This document shows positions 3,320-31,383 of a stretch of 32,000 bases of DNA, piece by piece. The position numbers and the translations under genes are program-made. The notes below the pieces were generated by a model that searched no databases, was not told where the DNA came from, and saw only the letters and a list, made by a program, of their open reading frames with translations. This stretch comes from Candidatus Saccharimonadota bacterium (GTDB lineage: Bacteria; Patescibacteriota; Gracilibacteria; UBA4473): positions 480,001-512,000 of the forward strand of contig JACKFV010000001.1 of assembly GCA_020632335.1 (NCBI GenBank). Reading direction: 5' to 3'. How positions within the stretch are numbered: position 1 is the stretch's first letter; every line of letters begins with the position of its first letter.

Positions 3320-4108
3320 CTAGAGGTCCCCCAGCATGGCTTCTATCTGCGCCTGTACATTGGCATACGGCTGCGCCCCACGGATGGACACAAAGTCCCC
3401 CGTCTTGGGGTTAAAGAGGAAAGACCCTGGTGTCCCCTGCACGCCTATCTGGCTGGCCTCAGCGATGCTGGTTTTGATCAGCTCTCGCGTAGCCGCTCCG
3501 TCTGCTGTACAGGCCTCAAAGGCCGCACGGTCCAGCCCCACTTCCTCGGCCAGGTCTGCGACCGTCTTACCATCTGGCAGGCCAATTTTATTCATGCCCG
3601 CCTGGGTGTAGTACTCGTCTGCTAGAGCGTAGAAGCCCTCGCTACCCTTCTGGTCCCCCGCGCACTCCACGGCTATGGCCATTTCCGTCGCGTTGGGCTC
3701 GTGGAAGCTCAGCGGGAAGTGCCGGAAGATAAAGTTCACCTTCCCGTCATAGGCCGCCATTACCTGCCCTACGGTCTCGTGGAAGCGTTTGCAGAAGGGA
3801 CACTCAAAGTCTGAGTATTCTATCAGCGTCAGTGGCGCATCCGCAGCGCCCTGTATATAGTCGGTGTCCTTCAGCGCGAGGATCTCTTTCGCCTTCTCAG
3901 CGTCGATGGTGGGGGCAACAGGTGCCGTTGGTTCGGCAGGTTTAGCCTTCTCCAGCTCGGCGATTTTATCATTCATAGCCTCCAGCTGCGCCATGATTTT
4001 TTCGAGGGCGGCGTCATTACTGGTGCTGGGTGTTGTGTCTGTAGGGCCCACTACCTGGCAACCGGTGAGCGCCAGCATAGCCAGTGCGGGGAGAAGAAAG
4101 TATTTCAT
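3320..4108 (-). CDS. DsbA-family thiol:disulfide oxidoreductase lipoprotein
   Basis: Thioredoxin-fold active site FECPFCKRFH. Start chosen at ATG 4108 (MKYFLLPALAMLALTGC), which gives a lipobox LTGC. The longer ORF-track start (4207) would overlap the upstream gene by 77 nt. Confidence 0.85.
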   Translation of the reverse strand: MKYFLLPALAMLALTGCQVVGPTDTTPSTSNDAALEKIMAQLEAMNDKIAELEKAKPAEPTAPVAPTIDAEKAKEILALKDTDYIQGAADAPLTLIEYSDFECPFCKRFHETVGQVMAAYDGKVNFIFRHFPLSFHEPNATEMAIAVECAGDQKGSEGFYALADEYYTQAGMNKIGLPDGKTVADLAEEVGLDRAAFEACTADGAATRELIKTSIAEASQIGVQGTPGSFLFNPKTGDFVSIRGAQPYANVQAQIEAMLGDL

Positions 4109-4130
4109 GAGAGCGAGATAAAGAAGCAAA

Positions 4131-5237
4131 TTACGAACGCCGCTGCAGCGTAAGCATATAGCCGCACAGCGCAAGGAAAAAGAAAAAGATGAGCCACTGG
4201 CCGCCACTTCCCGCTACTGGTAGTGCTGGGGGGAGTTCGGCTGTTTCGGCATCGTCTGGGGTCTCCGTCGGCGTACTGGCACTGCCCCCCAGCACGGTGG
4301 TGATCTCATCAGGGTGGGTGCGGTCTAGCCACTGGGCCAGCTTAAACCGGCCATCTGAGGGGGCTGTACTCGGTGTCAGCAGCGCCTGCTTTTTCTTATA
4401 GAAGCTCTCTGCAAAGCTCACCGTGGGGTCTTTGGCCCCTCGTCCCACGCTGGTGGTGCCTGTCGGTACAGCGGTTTCTTTGGCCTGGAAGAGCGGCAGC
4501 GCCTCATACACTACCCCCGTCTGTGAGGTTTTCTCACAGGTCTGCGTATCTTCACGGTACTCATAGCGGTACTTGCAGGTGACCCGACACTGCACATTAT
4601 CCACCATCCCATTGGCCACACGGCTGGGGAGAGAGCAGATATTCGGGTAGGCCTTCACCAGCGCCACGGCAGAGAAGGTCGACGGCAGCGTCGCCGTACA
4701 GAGCCCCTCGCTCACCGTGCAGCGCATGCCCTCGCCCAGGTACCACTGCCCCTGGTGCTGTACGGCTATATAGAGCGGCTGGCCGTCCGCCACGGTGGTA
4801 GCAAAGGCGACTTGCGGCGCGGGGGTGATCTCCCAGTTCTGGGCAGTCGCGCCTATGCTATAGCTCTGCAGTACCTCTGTATACTGGAATCCTCCGGTAG
4901 TCTGCTCCAGCGCGGTAGAGAGCTGCAGCGCGTCTGCCTTCGGTTTGGCTGCGGGGAGGAAGCCTCGGAAGACCCCATCCCAGGGAGTGCTAGTGGTTAT
5001 TTGGCTCCCCGGCTGCAGGGCGATTTTGGGGTAGTTTTCGGCACTCTGGGAGTAGCCCAGCACCAGTGATCCAGGCCCCTCCAGCACCGCCACCGTACCC
5101 GCATCACGAGCCTCTCGGGAGGGAAAGGACACCTCATGCGCATAGTAATCATCATAGAGCGGCGCGTCGATGACCTGCGCGGCCACTAAGAGCGGGAACC
5201 CCATCATCGCCGACGCCAGTACAAAAAATGCACGCAT
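4131..5237 (-). CDS. Secreted Cys-rich surface protein with C-terminal sorting signal LPVAG + TM + QRRS
   Basis: N-terminal signal peptide MRAFFVLASAMMGFPLLVAAQV. Eight Cys in the mature central part. C-terminus LPVAGSGG-QWLIFFFFLALCGYMLTL-QRRS (LPVAG = 4209-4223). No family recognised. Confidence 0.8.
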   Translation of the reverse strand: MRAFFVLASAMMGFPLLVAAQVIDAPLYDDYYAHEVSFPSREARDAGTVAVLEGPGSLVLGYSQSAENYPKIALQPGSQITTSTPWDGVFRGFLPAAKPKADALQLSTALEQTTGGFQYTEVLQSYSIGATAQNWEITPAPQVAFATTVADGQPLYIAVQHQGQWYLGEGMRCTVSEGLCTATLPSTFSAVALVKAYPNICSLPSRVANGMVDNVQCRVTCKYRYEYREDTQTCEKTSQTGVVYEALPLFQAKETAVPTGTTSVGRGAKDPTVSFAESFYKKKQALLTPSTAPSDGRFKLAQWLDRTHPDEITTVLGGSASTPTETPDDAETAELPPALPVAGSGGQWLIFFFFLALCGYMLTLQRRS

Positions 5238-5412
5238 GCTAGCATTGTCAGCCAGATCTGTGAAAAAGCAACTATCGCCCCTTGTGCGGAGAGGAATATA
5301 TTGTGAAGAGACATTATAGGTGTGTCACCAGAAGACAGGTATAAAACCACAACAGAGTATTTTGCATAGAGAAATTAGAGACACAAATATTGAACAACCA
5401 GCCAGAAATCAT

Positions 5413-8400
5413 ATGGTGAGAACCGTTATTCATATATTTTTCATGAGAGGAGTATCTCGATTCGGGTTGTGCGTTGTTAGCATTATGGGGGTCAGCATGC
5501 TCACCGGGGCGAGCTTTGCGGCGCCGGTGCCTGATTGTAGTACCACAGAGAGCAGCATTACTGCTAGTGCTGCGGGGGCCTTCACGGCAACGGTCACCCT
5601 GGAGAACACGGGGGACAGCACCGGCTACGCGCCCACAGTGTCTCTGATGCTCCCTCAGGAGCTCACTCTGCTGGGAACTCAGTACCGAGGAGAGACGCTG
5701 CCGGTCTTTCAGCAGGAGGTCTCTAGCACCGGGACGGTTATAGACGCGCTCACCGGGCAAGCTGTGGCGGTCCCCATTGGGCAGACGTACGCCGCGGTAC
5801 TCCTGCCGGAGGGGTCGCTGCCCACGGCGCACCTGGCTCTCTCGCTCGACCTCACTCTGGCCTTTGCTCCAGGAGTCCCCTTAGACACCCCTCTCTCTTC
5901 TTCTCTACAGGTGACGTGCGGTTTTGCTCGTGGAGCCACTGCCGCTGATGACCCTATTGCAGACCCAGCGCTCAGCAGTGGCCCCCTGCTCCTGAGCCTC
6001 ACCCCGAGTAGCGAGCCCCCCGTACCCCCTACCAGTACCGTGAATGCTCTTAGCCTGCAGCAGACCGTGCGAGCCGTGCAGCGTGGGGGCGTCTTCACCC
6101 AGAACCCCAGCCCTACAGACCCGCTGCGTGCGGGAGACATGGTGACCTATAGCCTCACCCTACAGCAGTCCTTGCCCATAGCCGCTACCGAGATAACCCT
6201 GAGCTTCCCTACACTCTTTATAGAGGCTGCGTCTCTCACGAGCGCCGGGACCAGTGTGCTGACGGCTGAGAGCGCCTCTAGCGTCCCCGCGGTGGGGGAG
6301 CTGAGCTATGGGCCGGCAACGCTGCACACGGGTGAGCCGCTCCCGCTGCCACTCCTAATGCCAGACGCCGTGGCGAATACGGCCCTGGTTTCTCTGCCGG
6401 ATACTACGAGCCTTGGGAATACTCTAGAGCTCCTCTATACCGTGCAGATTGCTGATATGCCTGCTATAGATCGGGCTCCGCTGCTGGTCAGCGCTGCGGC
6501 TACCAACGCCGTAGGAGCGGACACCACCGGTATCCTCCAGACCCTCAGCATGCCATCGCTACGGCTGCAGCAGGGCATCATCGCCACTACAGACACTGGG
6601 GCGGTTTTCCTCCCGGTGAATCGCGGCCCGGTGCCCTTCAACCCCATGAGCAACCCGCTGGCCTTCTCTGACGGCTTTGTGTCGGAAGACCTCACCATCG
6701 TACCCATAGACAGTAACGTCGCCGGTGCCAGTGGTGGGGCGCGCATGCGCTACGCGGTGCTGGTGGAGAATCAGGGCTCGGCGCCGGCCTATAACATCAC
6801 GCTGAGCGACAGTCTCTCCGCGATGCAAGAGATCCCACTCGACGAGACAGATGTCAATATCCGTGTGCTGAGCGGTGCAGCGGTAGACCGTACGGCAGCC
6901 TTCACTGGGGGGCTCTTTGGCTACACGGCCATGGGGGCCACAGCAGACGCGTCTAATGCCTCGATACAGCTGACCGAGGGGCGGCTGGAGGGCCTGAGTG
7001 AGCAGACCGACCGTGGGGGGAGCGCTGCGGGGGAGAATATCCTCCTCCTGAGCTATGACCTGCAGCTCAAGACCACTACCCAGCCCCTCATGGTGGTGAG
7101 TAACGCTGCGTCGCTGGTGCGCTACACGGCGGTGGAGAACAGCCCGCAGAACTACATCACCAGCGCTAGCGAGCACACTGACTTTGCTACCGTCTCTCTG
7201 GGAGGGGTAACGATGGAGAAGCGTCTGCTGCCCTCCACCGTGCAAGACCTCGCCCATACAGACAGCACCCTGGGCGACGCCACCATAGGCGAGATGATAC
7301 GCTACCAGCTGCGCTTTACGGCGCCAGAGGGGGACATCCTCACCCCGCGCATCGTGGACTACATCCCTGACGGTATGGCGTACTACAAGCCTACGGGAGT
7401 TCTCTTTAATACCACCTGTGGTGCCAAGCCCTTTGTGGGGAGTATTCCACCACTGAAGGTCCCCGGGACGCCCCCCTTCCCCATTGTGCCCTCGCACCAG
7501 GTGACCTCCCCACTGGGGACTACCGGCATTGCTGGGTCTGGCGAGCCGCTGCGAGTGGAGTTTAATAGTAATATCTCTGTGACGCCTGATGGCGACCCCG
7601 ACACCAATACCTTCTGTATGGAGTATGAGGTTGTAGTGCTGGATATGCCCAGCAATAACGGTCTGCCCAACTACTCCACCCTGCGGACCAACGAGGCTAC
7701 GCTTGAGTATGGGTCACTGGGGCAGAGCATCGGCCCCGTAAGCACCACCGTGAATATTGTGGAGCCCGAGCTGGCCATCACCCAGACGATCACGCCAGCT
7801 ATGGGAGAGGGAGGGGACACCGTCACCATCACCAGCACGGTGCAGCACACCAGCCGCAGCTCTGCTGATGCCTTTGACGTCCGCATCACCAATGGGATCG
7901 TTGACCCCAGTACCGGCATACCTATGGTGCCGGAGCGCTTTATTATCGACGCTGATTTTGCAAATGACGGGATAGATAACGACGGTGATGGACTGCTGGA
8001 TGCCGCCGACCCAGACGAAGTAGCCGGGAGCTTCTATGATGCCACGACTCGTGCGTTCCGTTGGGACCAGACCACCGTGAGCGATGCGCTCTTCCAGCAC
8101 TGGCCCATGGGGAGTACCCGCCGCCTGGCCTACCGGGCCGTGATAGACCAGAGCGTGGTGCCTAATGAGATCATAGATAATAACGCTACGGTAGTGTGGG
8201 ATACCGTCCCTGGGGAGTCTGTCAGCCCCCTGCCAGAACGCCAGAGTGCCGCTGGGGCTGGGGCAAGCTTCCGCGTGCGTAACCTGGAGATAGAGAAAAC
8301 CGCGCCCTTTACCTCCGCGGCGCATACCGGTCAGTCCACTTACTTGGTAGACACGCCCTTCTTGGCCATCGGAGAGCAGGTGACCTTCCGCGTGCGAGTG

Positions 8401-11400
8401 GCCGTGCCCGCTGCCACCATGTATGCCCTCACCATTGCAGACATCATGCCGCGGCCCGTCAGCTCTCCGGCCAGCGCGCCAGACTTCTTCCGCGTAGAGA
8501 GCGTGACCCAGACCCCTACGGATATCTTCACCGAGGAGCCCACCATCACCCTCTCAGATACCAACGCTGATGGGAATAATGACCGCTTTGACATCGTCTA
8601 TCCCCTAGCGATTAAAGACCCCAGCGCGACCGACACGCACCTGGAGTTCCTCGTGGTGGCCACCGTGCTCAATACCCCCGCGACGCGCAACCTCATGACA
8701 CTGCGCAATACCGCGTATGTTTACTTCCAGAACGATAAAGGTGTGTGGTCCAGCCCCGAGCAAGACTCGCAAGACGTGCAGTTTGTGGTGCCGCGGCTGA
8801 CGCTGGAGAAAAGCGCGGATACCACCGAGGTAGAGGCCGGAGACGTCACCCTCATCACCCTCACCTATGACCACCACAATGCCAGCTCTGCGGCAGATGC
8901 CTTCCATCTGCAGCTGGTAGATGCCCTCCCACCAGAGATGCGTGCGGTGGGAGACTTTGGCACCGATGGGGTGGATAACGATGGCGATGGCGCTATAGAC
9001 GAAGCCGATGAGGCTGCAGCGGCTTTCTTTGATCCGGGGACGCAAACGCTCACCTTTAATGACTCCACCACCGACAATCCCGCCTTCACGCAGTATAAGA
9101 AGAGCGATGCTCCTATTACCATTGCTTTCTATGCGCAGTTCACGGCGGAGGTGCGGCCCGCTACGCAGGTGACGAATACCGCGACGCTGACGGCCACCAC
9201 GCTGCCAGAAGACAGCCCCGACGCCCGTACCATCAGCGTGAGTGACCACCATAACTTTACGATAGAGCCGATCACCATCGAGAAGTACGTTGCCAATACC
9301 AGTAATGGTGACACCGGCACCAGTGCCTATACCCCCACACTCACAGACCTCGCTCTGGGGGAGGAGGTGACGTATCATATTCCTATTACGGTGCCAGAGA
9401 GCACCATGACGGCCTTCACGGTGGTGGATACCCTGCCCCCCTTCTTAGAGGCGCTGGGCGGAGAAATCGTCTCTACTGATGGCATCACCCACACCATGAC
9501 TGCCCCCACGCTGGAGGACAGCAATGGCGATGGCACGCTTGACCGAGTGATCTTTGCGCTGGGGACTGTGCGTAATGACGTAGCTGATGACGACACCGAG
9601 ACGCTCCTGCTTAGCGTTACCGCGCGGCTCTTGCCCGTGGAGGGCGTGCCAGCTGGGCGAGCGCTCACCAACACCGTCACCGCCACGTATAGCGAGAACC
9701 CTCACCCTCCCTATACCGCTAGCGCTGTGGTGGAGCCTCTTATCCCCACCCTCCGGCTGGAGAAGACCGCCAGCCCCCTCCTTGCCCTGCCAGGGGAGGA
9801 CGTCACCTATACCCTCACGGTGACGAATATCGGCAATGCCCCTGCCTATGATCTCACCCTTACCGACCCCCTCACACCGGTACTCCATGCAGTAGAGAGC
9901 TTTGCCAGTGATGGGCGAGACGAGACCGGTAATGGCGTTGCTGATGACGCCCCTGAGGACACCGCGCCCTTCTATGACCGTGCGGAGCAGCGCTTCCTCT
10001 GGGACGTCAGCACCACGAACAATGATGCCTTTGCGCGGCTCTTACCGGGGGAGCAGATCACCCTGCAGTTCTTGGCCGAGCTGGACACCAGCGTCACCCC
10101 CGCCAGCAACCAGCAGAATACCGCCACGCTACAGTACCAGGCGCTCCCCGGTCCTCTTGACGCTGCAGCACGCCCCGCACCGGGGATGACCTTCACCACC
10201 AGTGATGATGCGGTGATCACCGTTCCCTTTGACAGTAGCGTGACCAAGGACCTGCGCGACGACGACACCGAGAAACGCATTGGCGATACCATCCCCTACA
10301 CCATACGCCTGCAGGTGCAGGAGGGAGTGCTCGACCCCGTGAGCCTGACCGATACGCTCCCGGCAGGGCTGGCATACCTCCCCGGTACGCTGCGCATTGG
10401 CACCAGCCCCAGCGTGCAATACAGCGCCAGCGTGACCGACTGGGACGCCATTACCCCGGCGTCTGAGGGCATCACTACCGGCGAGAGCCAGACGCTCGAG
10501 CTGCTCCTGGGGCGGATAGAAAACACTGACACCGACCCCAGTAGTGAGGAGTACCTGTGGGTGGATTTTGACGCGCTGGTGATGAACACCGCCGACAACG
10601 CCGAAGGCACCACGCACCAGAATGCCGCCACGGTGAACTTTGCCGGTACGGTGGTGGGGCCCGTACTTGCCCCGGTGGTGACCGTACACGAGCCGCAGCT
10701 CAGCATTCACATCACCCCCAGCTATACCGGGGGGTCTACGGTGCTCTATACCGTGACTATAGCCAGTACGGGCACCCATAGCGCTGACGAGGCCTTTGAC
10801 CTCGACCTCTGGACGCTCTTCCCTCCCGAGCTTACCTATAATGGTGATCTCACACTCGTGAATGGCCACCGCCCCCCTACCGAGATCACCACGGGCCTCC
10901 CACACGTGCAGTGGCAGCTGGAGGACTTCCCGCCTCTCTACACCACTGCTAACCCCTATACCTTCACCTTTACCGCTACGGTAGGGGCAACCGTCACCGC
11001 TGGCCAGAGTATTACCGTGCCAGTAGACCTGCCATATACGTCTCAGCCAGGGGCGCCCGGAGAGCGTATCCCTGGGAATCCCCTCTCTACCGAGCGTACG
11101 GGGGATACCGCGCTTGGTGGTGGGGCCGAGAACGACTACCGCACGCAAGACAGCGCCACCATCACGCTTACTCGGGCAGACCTACGGACGTCGCTCAAGA
11201 CCGTTATAGACGTCAACGGTGGCCTGGTGCAGCCCGGTGACACTCTGCGCTACCGCCTGGAGGTGGTCAATACCGGGAATGTCCCCGCGCGTGACGTGCT
11301 GGTGAGCGACTCCATCCCCGCACAGACCGAGCACTTCACCTGGGTTATTGGCCCAGACGCCACGGTGGTAGACGAGAGTAATACCTCCACCGGTGGAGAG

Positions 11401-13248
11401 TATGACAACGGCCTGGTGCAACTGCGGGGCTTTACGCTGGCGCCTCTGGCAGAAGCACCCGAGAACACGCGTATCTTCGAGTACACCGTGACTGTCGTAG
11501 AGAATGCTCTCCCGCATCAGCCCATTACGAATGCCTTCACCGCGACCACGCCTGATGGCCCTGGAGGGGAAGACAGCACCACCACTACTGTCGAGCAGCC
11601 AGAGCTCAGCATTGTGAAGAGTGCCTTCCCCAGCGGCCCTGTGCACCCCGGTGATCTGGTCACCTATACCGTCACGGTGCAGAATACCGGGAATGCCCCT
11701 GCCAGCAATGTCCTGCTCACTGACCCCCTGCCCGATACCATGCGCTACGTACCCGGGACGCTCTTGCTAGACGATCACCCGCTTACCGATGCCGCAGATG
11801 CCGATGCGGCTGACTATAACCACACCAGCAGTACCGCCGTTACGCTTGCCTGGCCCAGCCTGGCGGTGGAGGAGCAGCTGACGCTGCGCTTCACGGTGCA
11901 GATGGCCGCGCTGAGTGGCCTGGTGACGAATACCGCCACCGTACGGGACGACACCGGCAGAGAGACACAGGGCAGCGCCAGCGTGCTCGTCGTCCCCGAG
12001 GAAGGCACTCTGCCCCCCACCACCCCGGGGACCGTGCCGTCTACGCCGTATGTGATCCGCTACAGTACCCCGCCAGCAGCCGTGCCCACGACTCCCACAG
12101 TAGTGGTAGAGCAAGAGGACCCGAAGGAACCAGACCTCTTCCTCTACCCCAAGCCTACTACGCGGCAGGTGCTCATCACGCATGCCCCGGTCACTAATGA
12201 CCTGGAGCGGGTGGAGATGATCCCCCAGACCGGAGGGATCCTCCAAGAAGCCCTGGCAGCCTCTCGCTTCACCGACGCTCTCCCCACAGACGCCGCCTAC
12301 CTCCCGGCTATAGAACTCACTAACCAGGGCTACATCCAGCCGAATGCAGACCGCGCCATACGCCTGAGCGATGCTATCACTCGTGCGGAGGCCGTGAAGC
12401 TCATAGCGCTAGGGTTTAAGCAGGCCGATGAGTCTATACCGCTGTCTCTCTCCAGCTCCTATACTGATGTGCCCGACGGCCACTGGGCGTTGCCCTATAT
12501 GCACTACGCCGCTGAGCATGGCCTTATGCAGGGTTATGGGAATGGGAGCTTTGGGCCAGAGGATTCCCTTACGCTCTCTCAGGCGGCGGTAGTGCTCAGT
12601 CGTGTCTTTGGCATCACCCCACAGCAGACGGCCACCGGGAGCCACTGGGCGGAGGGAGCACTCCAGTCTCTCCGTGCGCGGGGAGTCCTCACCGACGAGC
12701 TCCTCCCTGAGGCCACGTATGAGTCAGTGCTCAGTCGTGGGCAGTTCTTCACGCTCTTCTACCGGCTGCTAGAGCTGCGCAATGCTGGCCTGCAGACTTA
12801 CTTTGACGCGCTCACGCTGACTATCCCTTCTCTGGAGATAGAGGCTCTTCCGGTGCGCCGCGGGCTTATCAGTGAGCCGAGCATCTGGAAGAAGGCGCTG
12901 GATGAGGGCGCGGTATTCTACCAGTATAAGCAGCCCGGTAACCGCGGGAAGATCGTGCTCTTTGGCCACTCCTTCAGCAACCCGGCCTATGCTCCTGCGC
13001 GCTATGCCTTCACCAGGCTCATCAAGGGCCTCCACCCCGACGATACCTTTGAGATCACCATTGATGGCATTACCCACCTGTATCAGGTCACCCAGCATGA
13101 GGTCATCAGCGCTGAGGAGGTGCGCGTGCTGGAGAGCTTTGACAGTGGGCGGGCTGACATGGTGCTCTTTACTTGTGATACCACAGATCTCTCGCTCCGG
13201 CATGTCTTTGAGGCTGTGCGGCTGGATAGTTACCCGGCACACCGCTAA
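5413..13248 (+). CDS. Giant (~2,610 aa) secreted repeat protein: DUF11/Cna-B-like repeats, Pro/Thr linker, IPQTGG, 3x SLH, C-terminal sortase domain
   Basis: Uninterrupted 7.9-kb frame. ATG 5413 (alternative ATG 5443) precedes the signal peptide ...MRGVSRFGLCVVSIMGVSMLTGASFA/AP. The track start 5320 is a GTG right after a stop. Repeats of the type PGDLVTYTVTVQNTGNAPASNVLLTDPLP. C-terminal modules are listed separately below. Confidence 0.9.
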   Translation: MVRTVIHIFFMRGVSRFGLCVVSIMGVSMLTGASFAAPVPDCSTTESSITASAAGAFTATVTLENTGDSTGYAPTVSLMLPQELTLLGTQYRGETLPVFQQEVSSTGTVIDALTGQAVAVPIGQTYAAVLLPEGSLPTAHLALSLDLTLAFAPGVPLDTPLSSSLQVTCGFARGATAADDPIADPALSSGPLLLSLTPSSEPPVPPTSTVNALSLQQTVRAVQRGGVFTQNPSPTDPLRAGDMVTYSLTLQQSLPIAATEITLSFPTLFIEAASLTSAGTSVLTAESASSVPAVGELSYGPATLHTGEPLPLPLLMPDAVANTALVSLPDTTSLGNTLELLYTVQIADMPAIDRAPLLVSAAATNAVGADTTGILQTLSMPSLRLQQGIIATTDTGAVFLPVNRGPVPFNPMSNPLAFSDGFVSEDLTIVPIDSNVAGASGGARMRYAVLVENQGSAPAYNITLSDSLSAMQEIPLDETDVNIRVLSGAAVDRTAAFTGGLFGYTAMGATADASNASIQLTEGRLEGLSEQTDRGGSAAGENILLLSYDLQLKTTTQPLMVVSNAASLVRYTAVENSPQNYITSASEHTDFATVSLGGVTMEKRLLPSTVQDLAHTDSTLGDATIGEMIRYQLRFTAPEGDILTPRIVDYIPDGMAYYKPTGVLFNTTCGAKPFVGSIPPLKVPGTPPFPIVPSHQVTSPLGTTGIAGSGEPLRVEFNSNISVTPDGDPDTNTFCMEYEVVVLDMPSNNGLPNYSTLRTNEATLEYGSLGQSIGPVSTTVNIVEPELAITQTITPAMGEGGDTVTITSTVQHTSRSSADAFDVRITNGIVDPSTGIPMVPERFIIDADFANDGIDNDGDGLLDAADPDEVAGSFYDATTRAFRWDQTTVSDALFQHWPMGSTRRLAYRAVIDQSVVPNEIIDNNATVVWDTVPGESVSPLPERQSAAGAGASFRVRNLEIEKTAPFTSAAHTGQSTYLVDTPFLAIGEQVTFRVRVAVPAATMYALTIADIMPRPVSSPASAPDFFRVESVTQTPTDIFTEEPTITLSDTNADGNNDRFDIVYPLAIKDPSATDTHLEFLVVATVLNTPATRNLMTLRNTAYVYFQNDKGVWSSPEQDSQDVQFVVPRLTLEKSADTTEVEAGDVTLITLTYDHHNASSAADAFHLQLVDALPPEMRAVGDFGTDGVDNDGDGAIDEADEAAAAFFDPGTQTLTFNDSTTDNPAFTQYKKSDAPITIAFYAQFTAEVRPATQVTNTATLTATTLPEDSPDARTISVSDHHNFTIEPITIEKYVANTSNGDTGTSAYTPTLTDLALGEEVTYHIPITVPESTMTAFTVVDTLPPFLEALGGEIVSTDGITHTMTAPTLEDSNGDGTLDRVIFALGTVRNDVADDDTETLLLSVTARLLPVEGVPAGRALTNTVTATYSENPHPPYTASAVVEPLIPTLRLEKTASPLLALPGEDVTYTLTVTNIGNAPAYDLTLTDPLTPVLHAVESFASDGRDETGNGVADDAPEDTAPFYDRAEQRFLWDVSTTNNDAFARLLPGEQITLQFLAELDTSVTPASNQQNTATLQYQALPGPLDAAARPAPGMTFTTSDDAVITVPFDSSVTKDLRDDDTEKRIGDTIPYTIRLQVQEGVLDPVSLTDTLPAGLAYLPGTLRIGTSPSVQYSASVTDWDAITPASEGITTGESQTLELLLGRIENTDTDPSSEEYLWVDFDALVMNTADNAEGTTHQNAATVNFAGTVVGPVLAPVVTVHEPQLSIHITPSYTGGSTVLYTVTIASTGTHSADEAFDLDLWTLFPPELTYNGDLTLVNGHRPPTEITTGLPHVQWQLEDFPPLYTTANPYTFTFTATVGATVTAGQSITVPVDLPYTSQPGAPGERIPGNPLSTERTGDTALGGGAENDYRTQDSATITLTRADLRTSLKTVIDVNGGLVQPGDTLRYRLEVVNTGNVPARDVLVSDSIPAQTEHFTWVIGPDATVVDESNTSTGGEYDNGLVQLRGFTLAPLAEAPENTRIFEYTVTVVENALPHQPITNAFTATTPDGPGGEDSTTTTVEQPELSIVKSAFPSGPVHPGDLVTYTVTVQNTGNAPASNVLLTDPLPDTMRYVPGTLLLDDHPLTDAADADAADYNHTSSTAVTLAWPSLAVEEQLTLRFTVQMAALSGLVTNTATVRDDTGRETQGSASVLVVPEEGTLPPTTPGTVPSTPYVIRYSTPPAAVPTTPTVVVEQEDPKEPDLFLYPKPTTRQVLITHAPVTNDLERVEMIPQTGGILQEALAASRFTDALPTDAAYLPAIELTNQGYIQPNADRAIRLSDAITRAEAVKLIALGFKQADESIPLSLSSSYTDVPDGHWALPYMHYAAEHGLMQGYGNGSFGPEDSLTLSQAAVVLSRVFGITPQQTATGSHWAEGALQSLRARGVLTDELLPEATYESVLSRGQFFTLFYRLLELRNAGLQTYFDALTLTIPSLEIEALPVRRGLISEPSIWKKALDEGAVFYQYKQPGNRGKIVLFGHSFSNPAYAPARYAFTRLIKGLHPDDTFEITIDGITHLYQVTQHEVISAEEVRVLESFDSGRADMVLFTCDTTDLSLRHVFEAVRLDSYPAHR
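7963..9960 (+). repeat. Three diverged ~315-333-aa protein modules, each with an Asp-rich DG(I/V)DNDGDG-type loop
   Basis: NDGIDNDGDGLLDAADPDE (7963-8019), TDGVDNDGDGAIDEADE (8962-9012) and SDGRDETGNGVADDAPED (9907-9960). Each is followed by F(Y/F)D....(F/L)xW(D)/FND. Confidence 0.7.
12220..12237 (+). other. Internal sortase-recognition-like motif IPQTGG inside the giant protein
   Basis: Codons atc ccc cag acc gga ggg. This is the only [LI]PxTG match I found scanning the whole ORF by eye. Not followed by a hydrophobic segment or basic tail. YPK at 12145-12153. Confidence 0.6.
12268..12780 (+). other. Three tandem SLH (S-layer homology)-like modules of the giant protein
   Basis: FTDALPTDAAYLPAIELTNQGYIQ...ITRAEAVKLIA; YTDVPDGHWALPYMHYAAEHGLMQGYGNGSFGPEDSLTLSQAAVVLSRVFG; HWAEGALQSLRARGVLTDE...LSRGQFFTLFYRLLE. 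Confidence 0.75.
12808..13245 (+). other. Sortase (transpeptidase) catalytic domain at the C-terminus of the giant protein
   Basis: LTIPSLEIEALPV...LDEGAVFY..QPGNRGKIVLFGHS (His codon 12967-12969) ...DDTFEITIDGITHLYQVTQHEV... ADMVLFTCD (Cys 13174-13176) ...LSLRHVFEAVRL (Arg 13198-13200). Order and spacing match the sortase H-C-R pattern. Confidence 0.8.
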
Positions 13249-28611: not shown

Positions 28612-29505
28612 TTACGAGCTCCATGACGGGAGGTGGTAGTGCTCTTGCAGCGCCTGGACTTTGCTACTATAGGGCTTCCTCAGCACAGTGGTGGTACCAG
28701 GGCACCACTTGACCCCGCAGTGCAGCGCGTGCAGCCGCTCGGCATAGACGGCCACAGCACCAGAGTAGAGCGCTTGCAGCTCGCTCCTGGTACGGGGGGT
28801 GATGGTGGAGATGCCTGGGGGGCGCGTGTCTCGTGGGTCCATGAGGATGCCCAGCAGTGTGGCGGTGGGGCGCGTAGCCTGCACGGCAGCGATGGTAGGC
28901 TGGCTGACGGGAGAAAGGGCGTTGATGAGGACGACGGCTGTAGTGGTGCTGGGGGGCGCTACCGGAGGGAAGGGAGTGGCCTCTAGGCGGTCGCCAGCCA
29001 GGCGTGCCTGCGGGAAGAAGGGCGCTATGGCGGCCAGGCTATGGGGGTCGCGCACGGTCAGCGTGCTTACTGAGGAGCAGACATAGGTGAGCATTTGCCG
29101 CTGAAGATGCGTAACGGGAGGGTCAAAGCCCATGTGCGTGAGCCGCACCGTAGCGGTGGGGAAGAGTCTTCTCAGCCACCACAGCACGGCCGTCCACACG
29201 CGGTAGGCGCTGGTCATGCTGCCGGTGCTCCCGGCCCAGAGCCCCCCACCAGCAAACACCACCTCCGTGATGGGGTAACGGGTGAGGGCGGCTCTATACT
29301 CCGAGGAGAGCGCGTAGTGTAGCAGACTCCGCAGGCCCGCTGGTGGCCAGGGGATGGTACGAAAGGACTGCTCGCAGAACTGCTGGGAGAACTCAGGGTC
29401 ACGGGTCATCACTACGGCGGTGGGGTACTCACGCAGCGCTGCGGCGAGGATGAGCTCATCGCCCAGGTTGCCACTGCCATAGTTCCCGACGAGGAGCGTA
29501 CTCAT
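28612..29505 (-). CDS. csaB: Polysaccharide pyruvyl transferase, CsaB-like
   Basis: N-terminus LLVGNYGSGNLGDELILAAAL and the FAGGGLW...MGFDP pattern resemble the PS_pyruv_trans/CsaB family. Its ATG overlaps the dnaN stop by 1 nt (TAATG). Confidence 0.62.
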   Translation of the reverse strand: MSTLLVGNYGSGNLGDELILAAALREYPTAVVMTRDPEFSQQFCEQSFRTIPWPPAGLRSLLHYALSSEYRAALTRYPITEVVFAGGGLWAGSTGSMTSAYRVWTAVLWWLRRLFPTATVRLTHMGFDPPVTHLQRQMLTYVCSSVSTLTVRDPHSLAAIAPFFPQARLAGDRLEATPFPPVAPPSTTTAVVLINALSPVSQPTIAAVQATRPTATLLGILMDPRDTRPPGISTITPRTRSELQALYSGAVAVYAERLHALHCGVKWCPGTTTVLRKPYSSKVQALQEHYHLPSWSS

Positions 29506-30614
29506 TAGGCCTTCAGCGGCATGATGAGCTGCAGCAGGCTGTCATCGCCCTTGGGGGTGATGGTGATGGCCTTCATCTCGCTGCTGTCGCCCAGGTGCAA
29601 CACCAGGGTGTCTAGCCCCGTGAGGGAGTTCAGGCTGTCGGTCAGGTAGCCCTTATTCACGCTCACGCGCGTGCCGGGGCCTTGCAGGGTGCCCTGGCAG
29701 GTGGCCTCGCTCTGGCCGCTCTCGGTGCTGTCGGTAGCGATGGTGGTCTTGCCGCTGGAGTCTATATCAATGAAGAGCTGCTGGTTTACCACTCCGGCAA
29801 AGAGCCCCCCCTGCCGCACGGCGTGGTCTATCTCCTCGCGGCTGATGGTGAGGGCGTTGCTGTGGTCATGGGGGATGATGCGCTGGTAGTCGGGGAATTG
29901 TCCGTTGATCAGCCGAGACACCAGCGTGGTGTCCCCCAGTTGCAGGCTGAGCTGGTTCTCGCTGATGGTGAGGGTGATGGTGCTGGCGCCGCTGAGGCTC
30001 TTGACGGCCTCATAGAGTGTGCGTACGGGCACAATGCAGCTGGCCTCTGCGGAGGACTGCTCCAGGGGGAGGCGCTTCTCGGCCAAGCGGTAGCTGTCGG
30101 TCGCGGCCCAGGTCATTTGTTCGGTTGTGGCGCGCATATAGACCCCGCTCAGCAGAGGGCGGGCGCTACGCTCATTGGCACAGAAGGCCACCTGCTGCAC
30201 CGCCTGCTGGAAGGCACTCGCGCTGCACTGGTGCGTACTGCCCTCCACGGTGGTGTCTACGCGGGGGTATTCGTCGGCGGCGATGCCCTTGATATCTATC
30301 TTGGAGCCCTTGGTTTTCATCTGCAGACTGGTGCCCTTCTTCACCTCCAGCTGGATTTCTTCCTTGTCGGTGGTGAGGCTGACGTAGCTGCTGATGGTCT
30401 TGGCCGGCACGGTGATGGCCCCGGGGGTGTCTATGTGCGCGGGGCACTGGGTGATGATGCTGAGGTCGAGGTTAGTGGCGATGCACTGTAGCGTGCCATT
30501 CTCGGCCTTCAGTAGGACATTCCCGAGGACGGGCAGCGTGGGGGTAGCGGGTACCACGCGCGCGGCAGCCCGCAGGCACTGGGAGAGGAGCACGGCGTCG
30601 ACAGAGAGTTTCAT
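29505..30614 (-). CDS. dnaN: DNA polymerase III beta sliding clamp
   Basis: Start at ATG 30614 (MKLSVDAVLLSQCLRAAARVVPATPTLPVLGNVLLKAENGTLQCIATNLDLSI), the typical DnaN N-terminus. About 369 aa, ending ...LLQLIMPLKA. Confidence 0.9.
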   Translation of the reverse strand: MKLSVDAVLLSQCLRAAARVVPATPTLPVLGNVLLKAENGTLQCIATNLDLSIITQCPAHIDTPGAITVPAKTISSYVSLTTDKEEIQLEVKKGTSLQMKTKGSKIDIKGIAADEYPRVDTTVEGSTHQCSASAFQQAVQQVAFCANERSARPLLSGVYMRATTEQMTWAATDSYRLAEKRLPLEQSSAEASCIVPVRTLYEAVKSLSGASTITLTISENQLSLQLGDTTLVSRLINGQFPDYQRIIPHDHSNALTISREEIDHAVRQGGLFAGVVNQQLFIDIDSSGKTTIATDSTESGQSEATCQGTLQGPGTRVSVNKGYLTDSLNSLTGLDTLVLHLGDSSEMKAITITPKGDDSLLQLIMPLKA

Positions 30615-30672
30615 GAGCGGGAAGCTAGCATACAGCCTGAGCGTAGTGATATAGTGGGTACTTACAAGCGAA

Positions 30673-31383
30673 TTATGCTGAAGCACTGTGGGAGATGAGG
30701 GTACCTACGTCCTCCCCTGCGGCGGCTCTGAGGCTCAGCCCCGGGACGCCAAAGCGCAGTACACGAATGGGGAGACTATTGGCTCTGCATAGCGCGAAGG
30801 CCTGCATATCCATTACCTGGAGGTGCTGCTGGAGTACCTCATCATAGGTGCGGTGGGCATAGCGCACGGCGTGGGGGTATTTATTCGGGTCTTGGTCATA
30901 TACTCCGTCAGCGCTGGTGAGCTTGATCAGCAGGTCGCACTCTAGCTCCAGGGCGCGTAGGGCGGCGGCGGTGTCAGTGCTGCAGTAGGGGTTGCCGGTG
31001 CCTCCGGCCAGTAGGGCGAGCTCCCCCATAGCGAGGGAGCTGCGCACCCGGAGGGCCTGGTAGGGCTCAGCGAGGGACGGGAGCGCGTGCACCCCCCATA
31101 CGCGGCTGCCCGGCAGGTGGGGCTGCAGCAGGCAGGCGTTGTAGTAGGTGGCCAGCATCCCCAGGCCGTCAGACACCGTGCGGTCGAGGGGCTGCTTGGC
31201 GTGGTCACGGGCGCGCCAGAGGTTGCCTCCGCCACACACCACGGCCACTGTATGTCCCGCGGCGCGGAGGCTCTGTATCTCGCTCGCTAGCCAGTGGAGA
31301 GGCTCTGGGGAGAAGAGGCTTTCTCTGCTGCGGAAGACCTCACCAGAGACCTTGAGCAGCAGGCGCAGAGGGGTAGTGGTCAT
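30673..31383 (-). CDS. pyrH: UMP kinase
   Basis: Start at ATG 31383 (MTTTPLRLLLKVSGEVF...VVCGGGNLWRA...LAGGTGNPYCSTDTAAALRALE), 236 aa. The 91-codon upstream extension in the ORF track is antisense to secY. Confidence 0.9.
   Translation of the reverse strand: MTTTPLRLLLKVSGEVFRSRESLFSPEPLHWLASEIQSLRAAGHTVAVVCGGGNLWRARDHAKQPLDRTVSDGLGMLATYYNACLLQPHLPGSRVWGVHALPSLAEPYQALRVRSSLAMGELALLAGGTGNPYCSTDTAAALRALELECDLLIKLTSADGVYDQDPNKYPHAVRYAHRTYDEVLQQHLQVMDMQAFALCRANSLPIRVLRFGVPGLSLRAAAGEDVGTLISHSASA

Follow-up and report, generated by a model that had tools for sequence, protein, structure and literature searches.

Architecture of the giant gene

The window analysed here, a stretch of 32,000 nucleotides, contains a giant open reading frame (ORF) whose product ends in a sorting-like pentapeptide, three S-layer homology (SLH) domains and a sortase domain. 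The source of the ORF is an uncultivated Candidatus Peribacteria bacterium, a member of the candidate phyla radiation (CPR). GenBank holds the product as MCB9809775.1, called from the ATG at 5485, with a length of 2,587 aa and only the name 'DUF11 domain-containing protein'. The annotated start removes most of a plausible signal peptide. The true start is probably the ATG at 5413 or 5443, which we prefer because the signal peptide is thereby restored, and from either of these starts, rather than from 5485, the giant protein would probably have a Sec signal peptide. The features of the gene are listed below; residues are numbered from the GTG at 5320.

5320..13248, plus strand: giant ORF, 2,642 codons from the GTG at 5320, ending in the motif-SLH-sortase module
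5443..5520, plus strand: putative Sec signal peptide MRGVSRFGLCVVSIMGVSMLTGASFA, followed by AP after the predicted cleavage point; read off the sequence by eye
5521..11994, plus strand: passenger, about 2,150 aa of DUF11 / CnaB-like repeats (four TIGR04226, DUF11, DUF7507 and DUF7927)
11995..12165, plus strand: Pro/Thr-rich linker, unalignable among homologues, holding a non-conserved YPK
12145..12153, plus strand: YPK, residues 2276-2278, within the hexapeptide FLYPKP (12139-12156)
12166..12219, plus strand: pre-motif segment QVLITHAPVTNDLERVEM, family consensus R-x-x-D-D-[LF]-x5-6; the R-x-x-D-D-[LF] element lies 6-9 residues before the motif
12220..12234, plus strand: IPQTG sorting motif, residues 2301-2305 (IPQTGG extends to 12237, residues 2301-2306)
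12262..12789, plus strand: three tandem SLH domains (PF00395, E 1.5e-15), SLH1 with TRAE and SLH3 with SRGQ
12808..13236, plus strand: sortase beta-barrel domain (PF04203, 48.7 bits against a cutoff of 26.6, E 8e-13)
12967-12969, plus strand: predicted catalytic His2550, in VLFGHS, invariant in the family
13174-13176, plus strand: predicted catalytic Cys2619, in LFTCD (TLxTC-like), invariant in the family
13198-13200, plus strand: predicted catalytic Arg2627, in LRH, invariant in the family

The translation around the motif reads ...FLYPKPTTRQVLITHAPVTNDLERVEMIPQTGGILQEALAASRFTD..., and the predicted scissile bond, Thr2304-Gly2305, lies between nucleotides 12231 and 12232. An earlier sequence-only reading had pointed to IPQTGG at 12220-12237 as the only [LI]PxTG of the ORF, located at the junction of the Pro/Thr stalk and the SLH-sortase part and lacking the usual transmembrane (TM) segment and basic tail. 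All of this was borne out. A regular-expression scan of the 2,642 codons found IPQTG as the sole match, and the 337 residues between the motif and the C-terminus are filled by the soluble SLH and sortase domains. No hydrophobic segment was detected C-terminal of the motif in a Kyte-Doolittle scan of the protein, and Pfam gave no match to Gram_pos_anchor at E <= 0.01. The same reading had correctly named IPQTG as the sorting signal of RrgB (PMC5640630). It had also put the probability of a chance match at 0.2-0.3, in line with the 0.24 matches per protein expected from the protein's own composition and the probability of 0.22 of at least one. The lone occurrence of IPQTG in a protein this long is weak evidence, not beyond chance.

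The transpeptidase triad of the sortase domain is predicted from the conserved His, Cys and Arg. None of the NCBIfam models for sortase classes A-F was reached, the best being class C (21.1 bits), class F (20.2) and class D (19.5) against cutoffs of 160-166. A hydropathy scan found no hydrophobic segment after the signal peptide that could serve as a membrane anchor of the enzyme; it has SLH domains instead. Of these, SLH1 carries ITRAEAV and SLH3 LSRGQ, and SLH2 has a degenerate TLSQ, as SLH2 of SpaA is likewise degenerate (TVEE) (PMC6081394). The Arg of TRAE binds the pyruvylated wall polymer in SpaA and Sap (PMC6081394). CsaB is not encoded in the 32-kb window.

Conservation of the motif among fused homologues

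The family was found by an exhaustive HMMER search of 1.84 billion cluster representatives with the sortase domain alone, which gave 293 matches. Word-indexed searches returned only SLH proteins with the 415-aa C-terminus, no match with the sortase domain alone, and one stand-alone SLH-sortase plus SLH noise with the family profile. Among the matches listed from the exhaustive search, 19 share the C-terminal SLH-sortase module, the window's own entry (P0034) included. Most are large (up to 2,969 aa), a few being short and N-terminally incomplete, and those members that are named are from Peregrinibacteria and Gracilibacteria. In 13 of the 19, a hydrophobic signal segment is present at the N-terminus; the remainder look truncated. 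With a profile made from a subset of five sequences, GTDB genomes yielded three true loci, and metagenomes added essentially one full member. This passenger-SLH-sortase family is rare.

Conservation among homologues had been named in the sequence-only reading as a check on the motif, and [IVFW]P.[TS]G stands at the same alignment column in 19/19 fused homologues. Its distance from the C-terminus is some 277-345 residues, counted in two members with C-terminal extensions from where the sortase domain ends. The first position is Ile in 15 members, Phe in two, and Val and Trp in one each; Pro and Gly are present in all 19, and the fourth residue is Thr in 18 and Ser in one. Only 7 of the 426 columns of the cassette alignment are invariant. 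Two belong to the motif (Pro and Gly) and three to the sortase domain (His, Cys and Arg), with a Trp and a Phe making up the rest; for the motif Thr, conservation is at least 90%. Cassette identity to the window protein ranges from 23% to 48%. Since the motif occupies the same column in every homologue and is conserved like the catalytic triad, it reads as a real signal. An assembly or frameshift artefact was ruled out as the origin of the fusion, which occurs in 19 independent assemblies, the TAG stops of the related split genes described below being stops in both code 11 and code 25.

The R-x-x-D-D-[LF] element is also conserved at the equivalent position in all homologues, and the linkers upstream of it are unalignable among members. 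It may serve to extend recognition or docking beyond the pentapeptide. The YPK tripeptide behaves otherwise. It had been proposed as a pilin-type lysine donor, Lys2278 being separated from Ile2301 of the motif by 22 residues. A pilin-motif Lys is expected in a WxxxVxVYPK(N)-like context inside a folded pilin domain. FLYPKP lies within the Pro/Thr linker, without the Asn and without V-x-V, and in the alignment YPK is absent from all 18 other cassette-bearing homologues, including the closest, whose cassette is 48% identical. This assignment was rejected for the lack of conservation, the unalignable linker and the wrong context. Thus, of the earlier proposal, the motif stood as a genuine signal tied to the fused SLH-sortase, on comparative evidence, and the pilin lysine did not.

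The passengers of the 19 members are unlike one another. They include DUF11, CnaB/GramPos_pilinBB, eight SdrD_B with Laminin_G_3 and DUF2341, GEVED, DUF4114, Big_9 and Cys-rich repeats. Domains of these types make up the stalks and adhesins of classical LPXTG proteins, in which LPXTG would stand where the motif is found here. Because the passengers differ and the motif occupies the place of LPXTG, the cassette appears to replace the classical arrangement of LPXTG, hydrophobic helix and basic tail. We therefore consider it likely that the C-terminal 340 residues, comprising IPQTG, three SLH domains and a sortase, are a portable 'self-sorting' cassette that replaces the classical sorting signal. 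Hydropathy scans detected no hydrophobic segment after the motif in the 19 members except P0041 (2,194 aa, from an ENA metagenome). In P0041, an extension of about 120 aa after the sortase (residues ~2075-2194) ends in a hydrophobic helix and KKHKE, by which this cassette is predicted to be membrane-anchored at its C-terminus on top of a reduced SLH part.

Stand-alone SLH-sortases and split gene pairs

Local profile searches and inspection identified four stand-alone SLH-sortases of the same clade, P0066, P0078, P0124 and P0122, and inspection found no sorting motif in any of them. The sequence after their signal peptide is the one that the fusions have after ...TG. P0078 reads AEA and then SVPDWLRAKYNAYSIF (also AEA and then SVPDWLRAKYNAYSIFSD) where the fusion P0169 reads IPSTG and then ATPDWLRERYQAFSIF (also IPSTG and then ATPDWLRERYQAFSIFPD), and P0066 reads VLA and then EGGYVSPQLARAY where the fusion P0045 reads IPFTG and then YVSPELRAKY. 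The mature N-termini therefore match the post-TG sequence, and the predicted C-terminal fragment of a fusion corresponds to a mature stand-alone enzyme.

In three cases the gene upstream of a stand-alone SLH-sortase adjoins it and encodes a protein that ends in a sorting motif. The gaps were counted from the upstream stop codon to the called start of the SLH-sortase.

L014/L015: SLH-sortase P0124; upstream gene (L014:1-264 / L015:3-212) ends ...TRSEIMIDELPTTGK-TAG (IDELPTTGK, no tail); gap 72 nt
L016/L017: SLH-sortase P0078; upstream gene ends ...REANNLELLSVLPLTGVLR-TAG (also ...LLSVLPLTGVLR-TAG; LPLTGVLR); gap 9 nt
L018/L019: SLH-sortase P0122; upstream gene (L018:3152-5032 / L019:613-2562) ends ...DVDLPGALPTTGAAQTRTLATLLIALFAMFSTALFAIKQ-stop, a canonical sorting signal; gap 107 nt

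The upstream gene of L018/L019 encodes LPTTG followed by a hydrophobic tail and KQ. The TAG codons of L014/L015 and L016/L017 are stops in both genetic codes named above. Taken together, the pairs and the fusions form a series from a full-tail substrate with a separate SLH-sortase, through a substrate that ends at LPxTG with a separate SLH-sortase, to substrate, IPxTG and SLH-sortase in a single chain. This series ties the motif genetically to this sortase clade, and the substrates that stop just after LPxTG argue that the substrates of the clade need no membrane tail.

P0078 is MCB9809708.1, which shares its taxon and its accession series with the proteins of the window. The window organism thus appears to have a second, unfused SLH-sortase, and with it both a split pair and a fusion. 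The upstream protein of this pair (the pair being noted at L016:7608-9056 and L017:4262-5710, next to dnaA) has 127 aa, an N-terminal TM segment, a Pro/Ala-rich body and the end LPLTGVLR-stop; if processed, it would tether the membrane to the wall. Upstream of the stand-alone P0066, the product of L013:2-1606 consists of thrombospondin-type-3-like acidic Cys repeats and, after them, three SLH domains, and it has no sorting motif. It is a further surface protein with an SLH anchor whose gene neighbours that of an SLH-sortase.

Among the fused members, P0090 (MBI5414252.1; L020:35-1579) is the only one with a broken motif, FPQLG, in which the Thr is replaced by Leu. In the same protein the catalytic Cys is replaced by Ser (LFTSAED), and the His and Arg are kept. 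The conservation in 19/19, the absence of the motif from the stand-alone enzymes, the split pairs and the joint loss in P0090 support a motif tied to the fused SLH-sortase. We regard it as quite likely that the motif is a functional signal of the fused or of the sister SLH-sortase.

Predicted structure of the module

Residues 2271-2642 were modelled with AlphaFold2 (AF2) using the alignment of the 19 family sequences as input. The model has a mean predicted local distance difference test (pLDDT) score of 87.3 and a predicted template modelling (pTM) score of 0.88, and shows three helix-pair SLH units followed by a beta-barrel. A Foldseek search against the PDB matched the model to solved class A, C and E sortases (probability 1.0, target TM-score about 0.6-0.77) and its SLH part to the SpaA-SLH trimer (6cwc/7sv5, TM-score 0.77-0.83). 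The motif is placed in a coil outside the folded core, with a mean pLDDT of 63 for model residues 31-40. The expectation that it would not be buried in a folded domain thus agrees with the model, at this modest confidence. The preceding segment is better defined, with a mean pLDDT of 84 for model residues 21-30 and a short helix at 24-27.

Proposed mechanism and alternatives

These results suggest that the giant adhesin most likely cuts and anchors itself. The whole protein would be exported through Sec and its signal peptide removed. The SLH trimer, judging from its fold and TRAE, would then park the C-terminal end on the pyruvylated secondary cell-wall polymer. The tethered sortase, either of the same chain or of a neighbouring copy, would attack the Thr2304-Gly2305 bond with Cys2619 to form a passenger-thioacyl enzyme, and the intermediate would be resolved by an amine of the envelope, most likely one of a peptidoglycan stem peptide or cross-bridge. 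The passenger of about 2,240 aa would become covalently linked to the wall, and the G-SLH-sortase fragment would stay wall-bound. The predicted fragments are a passenger ending in ...VEMIPQT and a C-terminal piece starting GGILQEALAASR, the GGILQ side of the junction. The covalent link to the enzyme would retain the substrate, as the membrane tail does in canonical substrates. From the three-fold arrangement described in PMC6081394, SLH1 of the pseudo-trimer is expected to begin close to where SLH3 ends, and if so, reach in cis is geometrically plausible. Engineered SrtA-LPETG-target fusions self-cleave (PMC2901362), and so a motif located in the sortase's own chain can be processed. Both cis action and a peptidoglycan acceptor are plausible for the window protein. 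We give about an even chance to the wider proposal of single-chain self-sorting in Peregrinibacteria/Gracilibacteria. According to it, a cassette of DD[LF]x5-6-IPxTG, three SLH domains and a sortase would let any secreted passenger be cut from its own chain at Thr-Gly and attached covalently to the envelope, with no need of a membrane anchor. Each sortase would in essence work a single time, on the chain that carries it, and the split pairs would document the origin of the fusion.

Several alternatives were weighed. The least unlikely of them, though still unlikely, is that IPQTG is a true sorting signal on which only another enzyme acts, in trans, namely the stand-alone SLH-sortase MCB9809708.1 or a membrane-bound housekeeping sortase, the fused sortase serving other substrates. 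MCB9809708.1 is apparently encoded in the same genome, paired with its own small LPLTG substrate, and sortase A has been reported in Peribacteria genomes (PMC4736985). However, the motif and the fused sortase co-occur in 19/19 despite passenger swapping, P0090 has lost both the motif Thr and the catalytic Cys, and the triad is otherwise kept in the fused domains as an invariant set. The stand-alone paralogue, moreover, is only about 30% identical and has its own substrate adjacent. There is also a small chance that the Thr-Gly bond is cut and water resolves the acyl-enzyme, so that the passenger is shed or held non-covalently, as with self-cleaving autotransporters or GAIN/MAIN. Sortases such as SrtA hydrolyse their substrates when no nucleophile is present, which is the basis of engineered self-cleaving tags, and a wall-parked SLH enzyme may be without access to lipid II. 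Release of this kind fits poorly with stalk and adhesin passengers, which are useful only if attached to the cell, with a strictly conserved transpeptidase triad including the Arg, and with the canonical anchoring signal retained by one split-pair substrate.

It is improbable that DDL...IPxTG is an uncleaved pseudo-substrate docked on the SLH-sortase, for example as an autoinhibitory plug, in a protein that stays intact and is anchored non-covalently through SLH. The conserved pre-motif segment, at a pLDDT of 84, does suggest packing on the folded module, and in class C sortases lid segments occupy the active site. Nevertheless, the stand-alone SLH-sortases fold and persist without the segment, the split pairs put the same kind of motif at the C-terminus of separate proteins, where it is meaningful only as a substrate, and the conserved P, T and G are exactly the residues that sortases recognise. 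Head-to-tail polymerisation, joining Thr2304 to the YPK Lys of another copy as in a pilus, was part of the sequence-only reading and is very improbable. Its favourable points are that IPxTG, FPKTG and VPxTG are typical of class C pilin substrates (RrgB has IPQTG, PMC5640630), that RrgB-type isopeptide domains (TIGR04226) occur in the passenger, and that the best class match, although very weak, is class C. The proposal found no support in the family, in which YPK is confined to the window protein, in a non-conserved linker and in the wrong context for a pilin motif. The passengers differ completely between members and so offer no common acceptor domain, and no lid motif of the DP[WFY] type was seen in the alignment, read by eye with no formal test. 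Finally, a chance pentapeptide in a very long protein would agree with the 0.24 matches expected at this size and composition, but its probability is negligible, for the motif falls in the same column in 19/19 homologues whose linkers beside it cannot be aligned, with Pro and Gly invariant. Chance occurrence was thus ruled out by conservation across homologues.

Returning to self-processing by the fused sortase, some observations weigh against it. Cleavage is a prediction from comparative evidence, and the sortase domain is highly divergent (16-21 bits on class models with cutoffs of at least 160). The AF2 model does not place the motif confidently (pLDDT about 63), in the active site or elsewhere. 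MCB9809708.1 could cut the window motif in trans. The joint loss of motif Thr and Cys in P0090 is a single case in a protein truncated at a contig end, and the whole family is small, with about 20 representatives among the 1.84 billion cluster representatives. Lastly, lipid II may be out of reach of an SLH-parked sortase, and the acceptor is a proposed one.

Passenger and gene neighbourhood

Pfam and NCBIfam scans found four matches to TIGR04226 (RrgB_K2N_iso_D2, the RrgB-type isopeptide-forming domain) in the passenger, which by its domain content is a fibrillar-adhesin-type stalk. Three similar acidic inserts occur in it at about 7900-8000, 9000-9100 and 9950-10050 (ORF residues ~870-900, ~1235-1265 and ~1550-1580). 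These inserts, of which DFANDGIDNDGDGLLDAADPDE, FGTDGVDNDGDGAIDEADE and FASDGRDETGNGVADDAPED are examples, look like Ca-binding D-x-D-G-D-G loops and give a weak NCBIfam match to 'acidic double-disulfide repeat'.

No dedicated partner gene was found in the window, where the neighbours are housekeeping genes (the end of secA, rpoD, folD, NUDIX, RNase J, pth, dnaN, pyruvate kinase and others). A minus-strand ORF at 11767-12246, over the motif site, was treated as a shadow ORF of a coding region with 58% GC. Just upstream of the giant gene and divergent from it lie a gene for a DsbA/thioredoxin-like protein (3320-4207, minus strand; PF13462, PF01323) and an unannotated 368-aa ORF (4131-5237, minus strand). 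DsbA-like MdbA oxidoreductases have been linked to sortase-dependent surface assembly in Actinobacteria and are CPR-enriched (PMC6744442). The window also holds dnaN (29505-30686, minus strand). The dnaA gene is located beside the stand-alone sortase at L016:9128-10591, roughly 80 genes away by protein accession numbers, and dnaA and dnaN appear not to be adjacent in this genome.

Significance and comparison with known systems

Sortase biology deals with two separately membrane-anchored partners. If the proposal is true, a natural, SLH-localised fusion of substrate and enzyme would show that sorting can do without membrane retention. For CPR bacteria, about whose surface biology and host attachment little is known, it would be a new mode of giant-adhesin display. 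It makes a testable prediction, Cys2619-dependent cleavage after Thr2304. Protein engineering might make use of the cassette as a natural, evolution-tuned sortase module for self-cleavage or self-ligation, whose recognition element is extended (DD[LF]...IPxTG). The family further exposes a blind spot of annotation, since LPXTG detectors that demand a hydrophobic tail, or look only in the last 50 residues, miss such fusions, and split substrates that end in LPxTG plus 1-3 residues are also missed by standard LPXTG-anchor detectors.

In the full-text literature searched, which leaves subscription-only papers outside, no natural sortase-substrate fusion or SLH-sortase cassette was described, engineered fusions being the only ones. 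The engineered constructs (Mao's SrtA-LPETG-target and BISOP, PMC2901362) likewise join sortase and motif in one chain and are cut at the Thr-Gly bond. Unlike the window protein, they are artificial, carry an N-terminal enzyme and a C-terminal cargo, and serve hydrolytic or Gly-driven release rather than anchoring, whereas the natural cassette has an SLH module between the motif and the enzyme. Known SLH proteins such as SpaA of Paenibacillus alvei and Sap of Bacillus anthracis (PMC6081394) share the three SLH domains, the three-pronged spindle and TRAE, and, presumably, binding to a pyruvylated polymer. In the window protein, by contrast, the SLH trimer carries a sortase, sits C-terminal of the predicted cleavage site and would stay behind after transfer. 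A similar logic, in which a C-terminal catalytic module cuts at a defined junction beside the anchor and decides the fate of the large N-terminal passenger, is known from single-turnover autoprocessing domains, namely Hedgehog/Hint with its cholesterol transfer, self-cleaving autotransporters and GAIN/MAIN (bioRxiv 10.64898/2026.05.12.724683), but fold and chemistry are unrelated and the likeness is one of analogy only.

The closest relative is the canonical sortase/LPXTG system (SrtA, or class C with the IPQTG of RrgB). The beta-barrel, the His-Cys-Arg residues, the [LI]PxTG at the end of an adhesin or stalk, a probable N-terminal signal peptide and the CnaB, SdrD-B and DUF11 passenger domains are common to both. 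In contrast to that system, enzyme and substrate are here one polypeptide, the substrate has no hydrophobic helix and basic tail, the enzyme has no N-terminal TM segment and three SLH domains would localise it, no class A-F model fits, and an extra DD[LF] segment precedes the motif. The signal lacks a tail and is not C-terminal, and the enzyme lacks a membrane anchor and matches no class model; for these reasons the protein falls outside the classical definitions. Its parts and chemistry are those of a sortase/LPXTG system, yet without the defining features of either a classical sorting signal or a classical sortase.

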